Part shown: positions 43,774 through 52,988 of the stretch, one piece after another
How positions within the stretch are numbered: position 1 is the stretch's first letter
Layout: the number at the start of each line of letters is the position of its first letter
Assembly (NCBI GenBank): GCA_964013675.1
Contig: CAXGXE010000003.1
Location: forward strand, 1-58,800
Direction: 5' to 3'
Source of the DNA: an uncultured Verrucomicrobiales bacterium
GTDB lineage: Bacteria; Verrucomicrobiota; Verrucomicrobiia; Limisphaerales; UBA1100
Length of the DNA: 58,800 nt
Program-made: the position numbers and the translations under genes
The notes under the pieces: model-generated
The model's database searches: none
The model's input: the letters and a program-made list of their open reading frames with translations, nothing else
What the model was told of the DNA's origin: nothing

Positions 43774-43923
43774 CTATTCCATTTCTTCCTCGGCCATGGA
43801 CTCTTCCTCTTCTTGATCGCTATCAATAGGGCCCTCGTCGGGGGTCTCCGCAGCACATGCTAAGAAGTAGAAAGAACCTGCAATAATCAGGGCGGCACTA
43901 ACAAAATTGATAAATTTTTTCAT
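43774..43923 (-). CDS. Small acidic lipoprotein, 49 aa (not in ORF track)
   Basis: MKKFINFVSAALIIAGSFYFLA-C-AAETPDEGPIDSDQEEEESMAEEEME. Confidence 0.8.
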   Translation of the reverse strand: MKKFINFVSAALIIAGSFYFLACAAETPDEGPIDSDQEEEESMAEEEME

Positions 43924-43961
43924 CACGACCGTCTGACTACACGATAAACCCCCTAATGAGC

Positions 43962-44074
43962 TAGTAAAAAAACACGCAGTATGCGTGAAAAATACTAAAA
44001 CTTAATAGAGAAGTTGGTTAGATTTCACATTTTTCAATTAAGATAGCCTTTTTTCTGTTGGCATTAACCTTGCT
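43962..44074 (+). promoter_or_regulatory. Upstream palindromes + sigma-54 promoter of array gene 1
   Basis: GCGTGAAAAATACTA 43983-43997 (partner site ending CACGC at 43977); TGGCATTAACCTTGCT 44059-44074. Confidence 0.8.
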
Positions 44075-44117
44075 TGAAAATTGGTCGCTGCGAAATTAAC
44101 CCTCGCATAACCCAAAA

Positions 44118-45152
44118 ATGAAAAATATTAAAGAAAAGGGATTTACCCTAATAGAATTGTTGGTTGTTATTGCAATCATTGGCATATTAGCCAGCATGCT
44201 CCTTCCGACCTTGGCCAAGGCTAAGAAGAAGGCAAATCGGCTTAAATGTTCCGGTAATCTTAAGAGTATCAATCAAGCCTTTGCCGGTTGTGATTCAGAG
44301 TACGGCAACGTTCCATGGATGATCACTGAAAAAGATTCTGATGCGTCCTTTAAGGATGCTTTCGGCGAAGACGGAGCAAATAATCCGCGTTATTGGAACG
44401 TAAGAAACATTTCACTTTTGTGGCAAGTTCCTGCACTGAAAAACTCATTGGGAACTTGTGCCTCGGTGCTATCCCCGAGCGATCCAGCTGCAAAACGCGA
44501 AAATGACCGGGAAAAAGCCCGAGGAGATGGCTGGGGAGAGCAAGACCAGACCAAGACCGGGGCCGTTAGTAAATACACCGGCAAGCCTATCGTATTCTGG
44601 AATGAACCAAAGACAGGAACACGTACAACCGCATCCCTAACTAGGTTAGCCCAAAGCTACGGTGTTTGCATGGGTGGCGATACACTCGTTCCTGAGACTA
44701 TCATGGCCGTGACCCGTAACGCTGATGGCGATGCTTATTGTAAGAATAAAAAGGACGGATACGTGCGGCCAGATGGGAAGGTCTTCATGGCCTCTCACAT
44801 GAAATACTTTAATCTGGCTAGTCGCCATCGTAATCACTTGCAATTGGATCATGCGAGTGCGGGCAAGTGGATTGACCCTACGCAAAATGGTGCTGATCAC
44901 AGTGGCCAGGTGCCCCTTAAATATACACCAAACGCCACGGCCCAGCTTTACAACTACAAGGGCGGAGATAGTAAGTACACCATGAATGGTCTGGATGGAA
45001 GTCAGGGTAACATTGCCAAGGCTGATGGAAGCGTGGTTCAAGGTAGCGATGCTGACATGCAGGAAGCCATCAGGGCCCACACCGAATCTGAAGGCGGAGT
45101 TCTTGGGAGCGAAGTTAATCTCGGTGTTTTACGCCCTAATCAAAGTCGTTAG
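44118..45152 (+). CDS. Pilin-like array gene 1
   Basis: [45 protein letters not shown]. Confidence 0.92.
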
Positions 45153-45184
45153 AGGCCCCAGATACCATTAATTAATACTTAATC

Positions 45185-45212
45185 AGCCCCTCCATTTGGA
45201 GGGGCTCTTTTT
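45185..45212 (+). terminator. Intrinsic terminator
   Basis: AGCCCCTCC/GGAGGGGCT stem + T tract. Confidence 0.8.
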
Positions 45213-45249
45213 GTGGCATGCGGCATCCAAAAACGGGAAGCGCTCACAT

Positions 45250-45606
45250 GTACGCACTGACGATAAGGTCTTTATGGCGGCCTGGTAAAACTGGCAACAG
45301 CTCGGAGGGCGCGATCACATGCATCTCGAACTCAATCATTCGAGTGCTGGCGCATGGAGTGACCCGGTTGACATAGATTCAAGGGAACCTGAGATCAAGG
45401 CAACTTTTCCCCATAAAAACGGAGGAAAATATTATTCGATGATTGGTATGGATGCCTCTCAAGGCAACTACGCTTTGGCTGACGGTAGCGTTGTGTAGGG
45501 AACTGACGTGGATTTGAGCAGTGCTATCCAAGCTCCCCTTAGTGATGGAGGCAGCGTGCTTACCGAGAAAAACGCTGCTGTGTTACGCCCCAACACCACA
45601 AGATAA
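45250..45606 (+). pseudogene. 3' half of a pilin-like paralogue with two in-frame stops
   Basis: VRTDDKVFMAAW*NWQQLG...LELNHSSAGAWSDP...GKYYSMIGMDASQGNYALADGSVV*GTD...VLRPNTTR; TAA 45286, TAG 45496. Confidence 0.85.
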
Positions 45607-45643
45607 CACTCTAAACAAGACGCGGCCCAGTCCGCGGATAAAT

Positions 45644-45724
45644 AAAACGGCCTCTCCTTCGGGAGAGGCTGTTTTGTTTAACCCTCACATTTTTGAACAA
45701 AAAAGCCCCTCCCGTAGGAGGGGC
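45644..45724. terminator. Two adjacent terminators (+ strand 45644-45675; - strand 45699-45724)
   Basis: AAAACGGCCTCTCC-TTCG-GGAGAGGCTGTTTT and A6-GCCCCTCC-CGTA-GGAGGGGC. Confidence 0.75.
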
Positions 45725-45744
45725 GGAGAATAACGGGTTGTGGG

Positions 45745-50630: not shown

Positions 50631-50686
50631 GGTACCAATCATCTGTGGCTAAATTGTCACAAAACCCGTTTAACCAACCAAAAACT

Positions 50687-51676
50687 ATGAAAAAAACACA
50701 AAAAGGATTCACGCTCATTGAGCTGTTGGTCGTGATTGCCATTATTGGCATTCTCGCCTCCATGCTGCTCCCCACCCTGGCCAAGGCTAAGAAGAAGGCC
50801 AACCGCCTGAAATGTTCGTCGCAAGTTGGCCAATTAGCCAAGGCTTTCACAGGATCAGCTAACGACCAAGACGGGGCTTTCCAGTGGGAGATGACCCAGG
50901 AAGATCTCGATTCGATAGGAGATGACGCTAATTCTGAATTGGGCATCGCCTCACAGCGGATGATTAATGCAGGTCACCCAGGGCCCAAGGCCTCCCACAC
51001 ATACAATTGGGGTGTTTTTAGGCACATTGAATACCTCTGGGTGAACCCCAATGTTCGGAACTCCTTGGATTCCTCAAAAGTACTGCATTCCCCCTCAGAT
51101 CCAAAAACTAAGAGGAATAACGACCGTGATTGGAAAAATGGAAAGTTAAGTAATGGTCGTTGGTGCGGTCAGAAAATGCGAACCCGTTACAAAGTTAACA
51201 CCAATGCACAGAGCTATTGTATCCATCCAGGAGGGGACAGTCAGGACGGCAATAAGATCCTTGTCACCACAAGTAACCTGATGGGAGACACGTCAATGGC
51301 TGGTTACAATGCGAACGCCTCCCACCTGATGATTCGAGACCGCCGGGAGAGCTTTGACCAAGGTATTTGGTTATCCGCTTCTCAGATTGGCCAGCAAAAT
51401 GCCGACGGTAATGATTATGTGAGTTTCGTGGGCCCAAGCACTACGGGGAAATGGGTGCGTACTAACCATAACCGGGTATTAAAGACTTTTGACGTTAATA
51501 AGCAACGTGCCTTTTCCGGTTTGGACGCCGGACAAGGTCAAGTGGCGAAGTCTGATGGATCAGTACAGATGACCGATAATGCTGGCCTTCAGCAAGCGGT
51601 CAAAGAGCACGCTGAGTCCACGGGTGGATATAATTCCAACCTGTCAGAGGTCCTGATGACTCCCTATTGCCACTAG
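50687..51676 (+). CDS. Pilin-like array gene 5
   Basis: [45 protein letters not shown] 50687. Confidence 0.92.
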   Translation: MKKTQKGFTLIELLVVIAIIGILASMLLPTLAKAKKKANRLKCSSQVGQLAKAFTGSANDQDGAFQWEMTQEDLDSIGDDANSELGIASQRMINAGHPGPKASHTYNWGVFRHIEYLWVNPNVRNSLDSSKVLHSPSDPKTKRNNDRDWKNGKLSNGRWCGQKMRTRYKVNTNAQSYCIHPGGDSQDGNKILVTTSNLMGDTSMAGYNANASHLMIRDRRESFDQGIWLSASQIGQQNADGNDYVSFVGPSTTGKWVRTNHNRVLKTFDVNKQRAFSGLDAGQGQVAKSDGSVQMTDNAGLQQAVKEHAESTGGYNSNLSEVLMTPYCH

Positions 51677-51692
51677 GATTATCTTAAAACAC

Positions 51693-51727
51693 AAAAAACC
51701 GGGCGGATAACTCCGCCCGGTTTTTTT
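51693..51727. terminator. Bidirectional terminator
   Basis: A6-CCGGGCGGA-TAAC-TCCGCCCGG-T7. Confidence 0.85.
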
Positions 51728-51738
51728 ATTGAGAAAGC

Positions 51739-51912
51739 CTACTCCGAACTTTCTTCATCGGCTCCTTCAATTTCCCCCTCCTCTTCTGGGCTTTGATCAG
51801 CTGGAGGGACATAGTCCGACCCGGTTTCGGGCTCAGAAGAGCAACCAGTATTTACTGTTAAACCTCCAAAACTCAGCATAACAGCGCAGGCTAATAATAA
51901 TGTTTTTTTCAT
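51739..51912 (-). CDS. Small acidic lipoprotein, 57 aa
   Basis: MKKTLLLACAVMLSFGGLTVNTG-C-SSEPETG...EEEGEIEGADEESSE. Confidence 0.8.
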   Translation of the reverse strand: MKKTLLLACAVMLSFGGLTVNTGCSSEPETGSDYVPPADQSPEEEGEIEGADEESSE

Positions 51913-52024
51913 TTTATAAACAATTTCGTAGAGCATTAGTAACTCTCGCTAGTGAATTAAAACAAAATGGTGTTAATCAATTAAAGCTTAAACCATAGGA
52001 TGTTGGAAAACTTTCTTCTCAAAG

Positions 52025-52137
52025 GCGTGAAAAACACGCGCAATTGCGTACATTATACTAGTGATGATTGAAATAAGGGCTAAATACGATAAAAAGTGCC
52101 CAAAAATTCCCCTAAACGGATTGGCACCCTGTATGCT
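52025..52137 (+). promoter_or_regulatory. Tandem upstream palindromes + sigma-54 promoter of array gene 6
   Basis: GCGTGAAAAACACGC 52025-52039; GCGTACATTATACTA 52046-52060; TGGCACCCTGTATGCT 52122-52137. Confidence 0.82.
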
Positions 52138-52227
52138 CTAGGTAGGTCAGACAGTTAACCGTGTTTCGAGGATCGAGCACCGATTGCCGCGAATCGAGCA
52201 CACAACCCAACATTGGAGAATCGAAGA

Positions 52228-52938
52228 ATGAAAAATAATAATAAGGGTTTCACCCTCATCGAGTTGCTCGTCGTGATTGCCATCATTGGTATCCTCGCCA
52301 GCATGTTGCTACCGGCTCTCGCCAAAGCTAAGGCTAAAGCGAACCGCATCAAGTGCGTGAACAATCTCGGCAGCATTGGCAAGGCCTCTCTCGGCTTCGC
52401 TCAGGACAACACCGAGCGGTTGCCTTGGCAGCTCACTCCGCTGCAACAAACCAATCACAAGTACGCCGCTGGTTCGATCGGTGCGGGTGCCGCCTCTGAG
52501 GTGGTGAACATCGCCGCCATGCGCAGCGAACTGCAAACTCCGAAGATCCTCGCTTCTCCTTGCGACCCGACTCGCGCGGCCGCTAACGAGACTCTGCAAG
52601 GTGTGTGGAAGACCGCCAGTTCCGCGCAAATCGCCGCGGGCCTCAGCTACGCTTTCGCAACCGGTGGTGACACCCAACGCCCCGCGACTGTGTTGGCTCT
52701 CACCTCCAACGTCAAAAGCGATCTGAACAGCAGCTGGTCCGGTGCGGACGAAACTCCGATTCCCGCCGAAGCCTTCGCTGGCTTGAACAAGAGCCAAGGC
52801 CAGTTGGTGAATGCTGACGGCAGCGCCAAGCAGTCCACCAACGCCGATCTCGGCGCCAACGGCAAGATCACCAAGGCTCACGTGAACAGCCGCGGTGGCC
52901 AGACCAAGGGCAACTCCGCGGTCACCGTTCTCAAGTAA
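52228..52938 (+). CDS. Pilin-like array gene 6 (short, 236 aa; candidate major subunit)
   Basis: [52 protein letters not shown]. Confidence 0.92.
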
Positions 52939-52960
52939 GCTGAGATCGATCACTAATCAC

Positions 52961-52988
52961 AAAGGCGCCCTTCGGGGCGCCTTTTTTT
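52961..52988 (+). terminator. Intrinsic terminator
   Basis: AAAGGCGCCC-TTCG-GGGCGCCTTT + T tract. Confidence 0.88.

Follow-up and report, generated by a model that had tools for sequence, protein, structure and literature searches.

Among described proteins, those closest to the genes treated here are the expanded N_methyl plus DUF1559/SBP_bac_10 (H-X9-DG) pilin-like families of Planctomycetes and their relatives. In the available parts of the respective reports, this class numbers 74 copies in Rhodopirellula baltica (PMC2754498), 68 in Planctopirus limnophila, two of which are essential (PMC10632474), and 91 in Tuwongella immobilis, 25 of them seen in the proteome (PMC8567305). DUF1559 has no assigned function in the literature searched, where sigma-54 control of this pilin-like class, or of pilins in Verrucomicrobia, was not found either. 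Conceptually nearest are the modular type IV pilins, which the available part of the source describes for Streptococcus sanguinis, with a vWA module in PilB and a lectin module in PilC (Raynaud et al. 2021, PMC8179133). Here, we describe an array of six prepilin-like genes (g1-g6) at positions 43774-52988 of a 58.8-kb stretch of DNA, called the window, from an uncultured marine Verrucomicrobiales bacterium. Judged by its sequence, the array is a lineage-specific, large pilin scaffold laid out as a conserved tandem array with sigma-54 signatures and interleaved tiny lipoproteins, and not a hypervariable repertoire; every one of its elements has precedent. Our reading, with a probability of roughly 0.55, is that the genes encode specialised, co-regulated subunits which present binding surfaces on a type IV filament.

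The window is contig C3 of a 2.5-Mb metagenome-assembled genome (247 contigs, 87% complete), and all other C-numbers denote contigs of the same genome. Eleven loci from other species of the genus and family were examined alongside it; handles from L011 to L020 denote loci of these related genomes, L016 being from the closest relative. The related genomes are kin, and motif counts across the 11 loci and their 46 family genes are not independent trials. Two profiles are used throughout: the body profile (A2), built from the seven paralogs of the window (g1-g7), and the A3 profile of 49 family members from the window genome and the related genomes.

The array proteins and their conservation

The array holds six complete open reading frames (ORFs) on the + strand, encoding 236-344 amino acids (aa), and all six starts named in a preliminary description made from the sequence letters are confirmed. 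Each gene is defined by its ORF, N_methyl, TIGR02532 and alignment:

44118..45152, + strand, g1, prepilin-like protein of 344 aa
46394..47353, + strand, g2, prepilin-like protein of 319 aa
48399..49301, + strand, g3, prepilin-like protein of 300 aa
49548..50474, + strand, g4, prepilin-like protein of 308 aa, 61% identical to g3
50687..51676, + strand, g5, prepilin-like protein of 329 aa
52228..52938, + strand, g6, prepilin-like protein of 236 aa, a minimal scaffold without profile positions ~148-183

All six proteins pass the Pfam model N_methyl (PF07963; E 5.5e-11 to 9e-9) and NCBIfam TIGR02532. No other curated Pfam or NCBIfam model scores above its cut-off in the six, and the body is left unmatched. 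The N-terminus displays the features of a class III signal, consisting of a basic leader of 6-10 residues that ends in G or A (residue -1 of g2 is A), followed by F+1, E+5 and a hydrophobic alpha-1N stretch of ~20 residues. Comparing the A3 profile with the PDB, only alpha-1 (positions 1-63) aligns to subunits of solved filaments, namely Geobacter PilA-N, GspG (5wda), Thermus PilA and Myxococcus PilA. The type IV prepilin signal proposed in the preliminary description is thus a genuine class III signal with a full alpha-1 helix, homologous to that of subunits in solved filaments. This helix is what the array proteins share with GspG/PulG and the type IVa major pilins (5wda, 9egp, 6xxd, 8tj2), whereas nothing beyond it aligns. 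Accordingly, the GspG model (TIGR01710, 134 positions) reaches 33.8-40.9 bits against a cut-off of 88.85 and covers only positions 1-42 to 1-59, although it is, below that cut-off, the best-scoring NCBIfam equivalog for four of the six. The minor pseudopilin models GspH/I/J/K match none of the six beyond the N-terminal helix.

The leader and alpha-1 form a constant part of 44 residues that is near-invariant across the six proteins, with F9-C44 nearly wholly invariant in the alignment, as the preliminary description had claimed for the N-terminal segment. Among 49 family sequences, 25 of the first 43 residues are still invariant. Overall, the array proteins are 39-47% identical to g1. Their body is a scaffold of ~190 residues with paralog-specific inserts; one insert, at profile positions ~148-205, is found in g1-g5 and g7, while g6 represents the minimal scaffold. 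Some 30-odd body columns are invariant across the six, including W67, S119/D122/P123/N129, S180/Y181/D188, T199/N201/D205, G291/L292/G297/D303/G304 and H321/G326. The ordered scaffold motifs reported earlier are present among these columns, yet the P of 'PW' varies, and in place of SPSDP g3 has SASDP and g6 has SPCDP. Likewise, the variable segments are enriched relative to the long ORFs of the genome in W (2.1x), N (2.5x), H (1.7x), Y (1.5x) and G (1.3x), but not, as had been stated, in R (0.97x).

The array proteins resemble the pilin-like families of the Planctomycetes-Verrucomicrobia-Chlamydiae (PVC) bacteria in having a prepilin leader and helix, then an 'R-x-K/Q-C-x-N-N-L' continuation, and in their many paralogs per genome. 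Genes of the PVC families are, in the available part of the T. immobilis report, often flanked by genes with type I/II signal peptides (PMC8567305), as the array is by lipoprotein ORFs, and PF07596 occurs in ~20% of the members of the neighbouring ESM Atlas cluster. In contrast, the DUF1559/SBP_bac_10 model itself (PF07596, cut-off 23.3 bits) gives g1 13.2 and g2 19.4 bits over profile positions 2-71 of 268 only and does not match the other four; above the cut-off, it has no match in the whole genome, and in five sister-family genomes its matches cover the helix end only. The C-terminal H-X9-DG model (TIGR04294, 22 positions) has no match in the six at E<=1, and in the genome scan it matches only C1:29656 and C33. 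By eye, a GN-x4-DGS hairpin of the six resembles the H-X9-DG motif, with D, N or G in place of the H. Further differences from the PVC families concern range and layout, as, in the genomes searched, matches to the body profile come from a single Verrucomicrobiales family, apart from weak ones in sister families, and the array is clustered in conserved tandem, whereas the genes of T. immobilis are called 'evenly spread' in the available text (PMC8567305).

By their synonymous divergence, the paralogs are ancient. Synonymous differences (pS) amount to 0.48-0.88 in the constant N-terminal part and 0.63-0.86 in the body, while non-synonymous differences (pN) in the N-terminal part are 0-0.13. Because pS is saturated or nearly so at such low pN, the N-terminal constancy is due to selection on old duplicates; neither recent duplication nor gene conversion accounts for it. 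Use of one common machine, or co-packing, would account for the constant helix. The saturation also makes the ratio of non-synonymous to synonymous rates (dN/dS) between paralogs not computable, and it was therefore taken from ortholog pairs, as crude Nei-Gojobori estimates without a site model. Nine pairs with finite dS give 0.07-0.26, four of the nine having dS >1 and thus lying near saturation. In the five pairs in which both column classes are finite, columns variable among paralogs show dN/dS of 0.09-0.22 and scaffold columns 0.03-0.13. Paralog-specific segments are therefore conserved within each orthogroup, and these pairwise estimates point to purifying selection also where the preliminary description had expected variability.

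In a tree of the 49 family proteins from the window and related genomes, the orthogroups g2, g3/4, g5 and g6 are resolved, and these four recur in the same order at one syntenic locus in several species of the genus (g2 in five other loci, g5 in seven, g6 in five). An ortholog of g1 is found in one examined locus only, L016, where it is 98% identical with a dN/dS of 0.07. Order and orthogroups are thus kept across genomes, close to the invariant array content that the preliminary description had named as speaking against its own proposal, yet with some turnover by duplication and decay. Lineage-specific expansions or duplications are seen in L011, L015 and L020. In addition, L011 (5131-5982, + strand) holds a g4 ortholog, 78% identical over residues 37-308, whose first 36 residues, the leader and the first half of the helix, are gone; it is either a 5'-truncated copy or an assembly artefact. 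As L011 holds a g4 ortholog with a lost 5' end, the g3/g4 duplication would predate the L011 split, and copies do decay. The upstream reading frame of this ortholog overlaps the antisense of a small acidic lipoprotein gene. A decayed copy also lies in the window:

45226..45594, + strand, what is left of a paralog's C-terminal half, interrupted in frame by one TAG and one TAA (body profile positions 149-261, E 3.5e-26)

This remnant is most like g3/g4 and sits between g1 and a 114-aa lipoprotein gene, a case of gene death inside the array.

Promoter motifs, palindromes and RNA libraries

The window contains seven copies of the sigma-54 motif TGGCAY-N6-TGC, where 1.69 would be expected and none of 100 shuffles reaches seven; six of these copies sit 59-106 nucleotides (nt) before the six array ATGs. 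A motif scan places them as follows:

44059..44073, + strand, sigma-54 -24/-12 motif of g1 (TGGCATTAACCTTGC)
46300..46314, + strand, sigma-54 motif of g2
48333..48347, + strand, sigma-54 motif of g3
49476..49490, + strand, sigma-54 motif of g4
50615..50629, + strand, sigma-54 motif of g5
52122..52136, + strand, sigma-54 motif of g6

These motifs have GG at -24 and GC at -12 with exact spacing, and the genome encodes the matching factors. Both rpoN and three NtrC-type activators, which share one REC-AAA-HTH_8 architecture, are found on other contigs, the activators on C86, C23 and C32, and none of the three is linked to the array. A palindrome of the form GCGTG-N5-CACGC, with at most one mismatch, is located 76-149 nt upstream of five of the six array promoters, three copies being exact and two having one mismatch, while g1 is preceded by a variant. 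Except for this variant, the palindromes come from a motif scan; no strand is assigned to any of them:

43973..43987, variant palindrome CACGCAGTATGCGTG upstream of g1, outside the GCGTG-N5-CACGC form
46214..46228, palindrome GCGTGAAAATCACGC upstream of g2, a candidate activator site
48184..48198, palindrome upstream of g3, one mismatch
49357..49371, palindrome upstream of g4, one mismatch
50539..50553, palindrome GCGTGGAAATCACGC upstream of g5
52025..52039, palindrome GCGTGAAAAACACGC upstream of g6, with an identical site before the g6 orthologs in L011 and L017

Downstream, a hairpin scan finds the following candidates:

45185..45206, + strand, terminator-like hairpin after g1
47380..47401, + strand, terminator-like hairpin after g2
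49323..49347, + strand, terminator-like hairpin after g3
50498..50524, + strand, terminator-like hairpin after g4
51693..51726, no strand assigned (listed on the - strand by the scan; sequence also read directly), hairpin flanked by an A-run and a T-run, after g5 and after an opposite-strand lipoprotein ORF
52961..52984, + strand, terminator-like hairpin after g6

The layout given in the preliminary description, in which each gene is a unit of palindrome, sigma-54 promoter, coding sequence and terminator, thus holds for all six, with a variant palindrome at g1 and with signals whose activity is presumed. Across the whole genome, 83 sigma-54 motifs are found, and the only ones with a palindrome within 220 nt upstream are six that belong to pilin genes (five on C3, one on C127). 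Palindromes number 28 on one strand genome-wide; besides the five array sites on C3, a single one, on C97, lies close to a cut pilin gene, the others have no clear link in the genome scan, and on C58 a palindrome is on the wrong side of a sigma-54 motif. In the 11 related loci, a sigma-54 motif is found within 400 nt upstream of 37 of the 46 family genes (chance ~0.007 per gene) and a palindrome upstream of 16 (chance ~0.004 per gene), and some of those without a motif are truncated by the end of their locus. The common sigma-54 motif and palindrome, recurring as they do in related genomes, fit the co-regulation of the array genes that was suggested earlier.

Major pilin genes in Pseudomonas, Myxococcus and Geobacter depend on sigma-54 and PilR-PilS. 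The array resembles them in its -24/-12 promoters, in an upstream activator site, here a candidate, and in the NtrC-class activators of the genome. It differs in comprising six separate pilin genes (seven with that on C127), each with a promoter and a common palindrome, and in that no activator is linked to it.

Words of the array stretch occur in 20 RNA runs; the small word shares of X3, X4, X6 and X8-X20 do not count as evidence. Contigs at >=95% identity come from four runs of three marine studies; all six genes are covered in X1 and X2, which belong to one study, five in X5 and four in X7. DNA may be present in such libraries, and the contigs show neither RNA ends nor expression levels, so that the array genes are present in marine RNA libraries, and no more. 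Cover is missing at 43500-43823 and 45444-46091 (four of four runs) and at 47712-48359 (three of four), gaps that are unusable as evidence for monocistronic units or for silent lipoprotein genes. None of the contigs listed bridges two array genes. Some contigs start a few to ~50 nt after the -12 elements (44086, 46374, 48363, 49544, 50641, 52160) and some end near the hairpins (45160, 47358, 50507, 51704), either of which is a hint at most. The summed contig depth is highest for g6 in all four runs, although contig depth gives no ranking of genes. A contig from the oligo-dT library X5 ends at 47372, immediately short of the g2 hairpin, and continues into an A-rich tail, which may reflect either polyadenylation at the end of a bacterial RNA or internal priming.

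Modular relatives, filament machinery and competing readings

Searching with full-length g3 returns thousands of metagenomic proteins, much of this resting on the helix. The best matches, 81-91% identical, are metagenomic, and named matches are called 'prepilin-type N-terminal cleavage/methylation domain-containing protein' or 'type II secretion system protein'. The body profile is more selective, matching 425 cluster representatives at E<=1e-3 and 249 at 1e-10 among 1.84 billion. All 18 genomes of the family contain it (3-46 matches each), as do, weakly, 3 of 12 sister families in the same order, and it was found in none of 200 further genomes sampled across the phylum (47 families, 103 genera; at most 12 candidates scored per genome), the reach of this seven-sequence profile being limited. 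Within the window genome, a six-frame scan identifies 21 ORFs with a G-F-x-x-x-E type motif, seven of them in the window, and the body profile matches 16 of the 21 at E<=1e-22.

What the body may do is indicated by longer relatives. Among 63 relatives hand-picked from 150 listed matches, with a leaning to long ones, 60 carry N_methyl and five a weak DUF1559 match, and further domains comprise PA14 (4), VWA (2), reprolysin-like (2), C-type lectin (2), GH115_C, LamG, CBM6, CBM35 and CBM13-like. In ten long relatives, the scaffold ends at about residue 231-242, and nine of the ten have an extra domain at ~250-445, while one is without; an F5/8-type-C match in long relatives is below cut-off. The window genome itself encodes two such proteins, one combining the scaffold with a thioredoxin-like domain at residues 270-365 (C1:66138-67304, - strand, L057) and one with a VWA domain at residues 276-430 (C219:798-2123, - strand, L058). 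By domain content, both are natural 'modular pilins'. The lectin, CBM, VWA and protease modules grafted onto the scaffold in relatives point to binding or processing of external ligands and, together with PA14, lend indirect support to the display or ligand-binding role of the body put forward in the preliminary description. As in the modular pilins that the available part of the source describes for S. sanguinis (PMC8179133), a pilin module serves as carrier of a functional surface, which in the relatives and the two proteins of this genome is VWA, LamG, PA14, CBM, protease or thioredoxin. The six array proteins differ in that Pfam recognises no extra domain in them, nor a solute-binding domain, and their distinguishing parts sit in the scaffold as inserts; at ~240 aa, the carrier is also much larger than the classical pilin module.

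No match to T2SSE, T2SSF, secretin or peptidase A24 is found on contig C3, in line with the earlier statement that the window lacks secretin, assembly ATPase and peptidase genes. The machinery that the preliminary description had looked to elsewhere in the genome is located on other contigs. A prepilin peptidase (peptidase A24) is encoded on C13, T2SSE ATPases on C118, C82, C30 and C2 (573-597 aa, the size of GspE/PilB, and on C2 413 aa, the size of PilT), a T2SSF platform protein on C116, and secretins on C39, C2 and C110. On C116 (L070, 4107-6586), the T2SSF gene has three small pseudopilin genes of the GFxxxE type directly behind it (168 aa, 158 aa and one running off the contig end), a candidate core of one filament machine.

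Subunits of a type IV filament are the most economical reading of the array proteins because the helix is homologous to that of filament subunits and under constraint, and because the peptidase and the machines are encoded in the genome. An NtrC-type activator would bind the shared palindrome and fire the sigma-54 promoter before every gene, switching on the whole set together with one transcript per gene. For the subsequent steps, we infer that the prepilin peptidase encoded elsewhere would cleave the leaders and that a filament machine, likewise encoded elsewhere (assembly ATPase, platform protein, secretin), would polymerise the subunits via the shared helix. The bodies would then be exposed at the surface as functionally differentiated, conserved surfaces, not interchangeable variants, and would most likely bind ligands (glycans, particles or proteins), like modular or minor pilins. 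Being the shortest, a minimal scaffold and placed at the array end in six genomes, g6 could possibly be the core subunit.

It could further be speculated that the array represents a lineage-own 'display pilin', in which a carrier of ~240 residues joins an invariant helix to conserved inserts or to grafted CBM, lectin, PA14, VWA, metalloprotease or thioredoxin modules. Such subunits would build a heteropolymeric, possibly retractile fibre that captures and processes algal polysaccharides or particles, with one NtrC-type regulator as the switch and the tiny acidic lipoproteins as conserved accessory parts. In its entirety, this picture is unlikely.

Several observations weigh against filament subunits that are co-regulated and display binding surfaces. 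The body profile has no match among PDB sequences at E<=1, and at 236-344 aa the proteins exceed the matched solved major pilins, whose chains have 61-208 aa. No machinery gene is linked to the array in the window genome or in the flanks seen in relatives. In the available part of the report on the planctomycete T. immobilis, N_methyl plus SBP_bac_10 proteins were recovered in detergent-soluble membrane fractions (PMC8567305), which fits membrane-resident proteins equally well. No sigma-54 motif is found upstream of the seventh paralog, g7, and several family genes elsewhere also lack a strict motif. Finally, contigs from RNA libraries are no proof of transcription.

Type II secretion pseudopilins and the archaeal 'bindosome', in which sugar-binding proteins carry pilin-type signals, offer a likeness for the main rival reading. 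In this case, cleavage by the prepilin peptidase would not lead to a long surface fibre. The proteins would remain anchored in the inner membrane, or at most build a short periplasmic pseudopilus, and serve binding or scaffolding for substrate capture. This is a serious possibility, though a doubtful one. It would suit the large size of the proteins, the rank of GspG as best-scoring equivalog for four of them, below cut-off as it is, the position of the array, always beside an operon for a sugar-type ATP-binding cassette (ABC) transporter, and the membrane fractionation of the T. immobilis class noted in the available text (PMC8567305). Yet no solute-binding domain is detected in any of the six, which reach only 13-19 bits with PF07596 at its helix-end positions 2-71, a model without any match above cut-off in this genome, and the adjoining ABC operon encodes its own periplasmic binding protein, Peripla_BP_4. 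Moreover, constraint extends over all 44 N-terminal residues, the amphipathic half included, which exceeds what a membrane anchor needs, and PilT-sized ATPases and secretins in the genome make extended, retractile pili possible.

A quite improbable variant keeps the filament and restricts the array proteins to a minor-pilin or tip-complex set, which would prime assembly and present adhesive surfaces at the tip only, with the major subunit encoded elsewhere. Several large, differentiated pilins at one locus would agree with this, and a 120-aa GFxxxE protein on C14, as well as the small pseudopilins beside T2SSF on C116, could be major subunits; modular pilins are indeed proposed to sit at filament tips in the available part of the source (PMC8179133). 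Against it, the six resemble GspH/I/J/K in the N-terminal helix only, and this single family accounts for 16 of the genome's 21 GFxxxE ORFs, a number beyond the needs of a tip complex. Core minor pilins are usually encoded in one operon, whereas the array consists of separate transcription units.

Neisseria varies its pili antigenically through the pilE/pilS system, and the array shares with it several pilin paralogs with constant and variable parts, but lacks silent promoterless cassettes and gene conversion, and its selection is purifying. The phage-evasion or antigenic-variation repertoire of the preliminary description, with a constant stalk and interchangeable, fast-evolving hypervariable heads swapped by recombination or alternative expression, is therefore largely refuted and very improbable: the constant N-terminus, the paralog-specific segments and the turnover (the decayed copy in the window, the 5'-truncated g4 ortholog, the duplications in L011, L015 and L020) would suit it, but saturation of synonymous sites extends to the constant part, so that the paralogs are ancient and show no recent gene conversion, each of the six copies is complete and has a promoter motif of its own, the order of orthologs persists throughout the genus, and ortholog dN/dS is 0.07-0.26 overall and 0.09-0.22 in the variable segments.

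Surroundings of the array and wider meaning

Four ORFs with a lipobox on the opposite strand face g1, g2, g3 and g6, so that the pairing of four array genes with divergent lipoproteins, noted earlier, is borne out:

43774..43923, - strand, small acidic lipoprotein ORF of 49 aa, lipobox FLAC, divergent from g1; an ORF almost identical to it accompanies the g1 ortholog in L016
45745..46089, - strand, lipoprotein ORF of 114 aa, lipobox FVAC, divergent from g2; orthologs are 98% (L016) and 84% (L011) identical
47899..48069, - strand, tiny acidic lipoprotein ORF of 56 aa, lipobox FVAC, divergent from g3; counterparts at the same position in L012, L013, L014 and L016
51739..51912, - strand, tiny acidic lipoprotein ORF of ~57 aa from MKKT, lipobox NTGC, divergent from g6; counterparts in L017 and L011

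The 114-aa lipoprotein beside g2 belongs to no Pfam family, and the tiny acidic ones fall in no known family. In the three tiny lipoproteins of the window (49-57 aa), 30-40% of the mature part is Asp plus Glu. Across the window and its relatives (L011, L012, L013, L014, L016, L017, L019), tiny acidic lipoprotein ORFs of 49-70 aa keep their position between pilin genes; in relatives, one such place is flanked by the g2 and g3/4 orthologs and another by those of g5 and g6. Because counterparts hold the same positions in relatives, these ORFs are taken as real genes.

The array also contains a tRNA gene, and a seventh paralog is found elsewhere in the window by six-frame scan and body profile; like the remnant between g1 and g2, both are absent from the preliminary description:

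47481..47567, + strand, tRNA-Leu(CAG) inside the array after g2, at the same place in seven of ten related loci (L011, L012, L013, L014, L015, L016, L018)
21768..22760, + strand, g7, the seventh paralog, 330 aa

Two gene pairs of PSCyt/DUF1549-DUF1553 plus DUF1501, typical of PVC bacteria, are encoded at 17115-21241 and 26813-31226 of the window (+ strand), and g7 comes directly after the first pair and before the gene for a 728-aa Kelch/PQQ beta-propeller protein. The array itself is flanked on one side by genes for a 3-keto-disaccharide hydrolase (DUF1080) and an SDR protein, and on the other by a membrane protein gene and the sugar-type ABC operon. These flanks (DUF1080 and SDR; ABC operon) recur in relatives. 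In L016, a 273-aa lipoprotein with leucine-rich-repeat-like sequence (5666-6487, + strand) is encoded between the small lipoprotein gene and the DUF1080 gene, and is absent from that place in the window.

PVC bacteria are marked by large paralogous families of pilin-like proteins, of which the locus described here is a compact, conserved case. It combines a regulon signature of sigma-54 motif and palindrome, a minimal g6 beside elaborated members, natural fusions that hint at the job of the scaffold, and presence in marine RNA libraries. If the array proteins build a fibre with binding or enzymatic surfaces, they would add a mechanism for the capture of polysaccharides by abundant marine Verrucomicrobia and carry the notion of 'modular pilins' over from pathogens to heterotrophs of the ocean. 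If they are instead membrane-resident binding proteins, they would be a bacterial counterpart of the archaeal bindosome. Either outcome, fibre or membrane, would be a start on explaining a very large set of unannotated genes.

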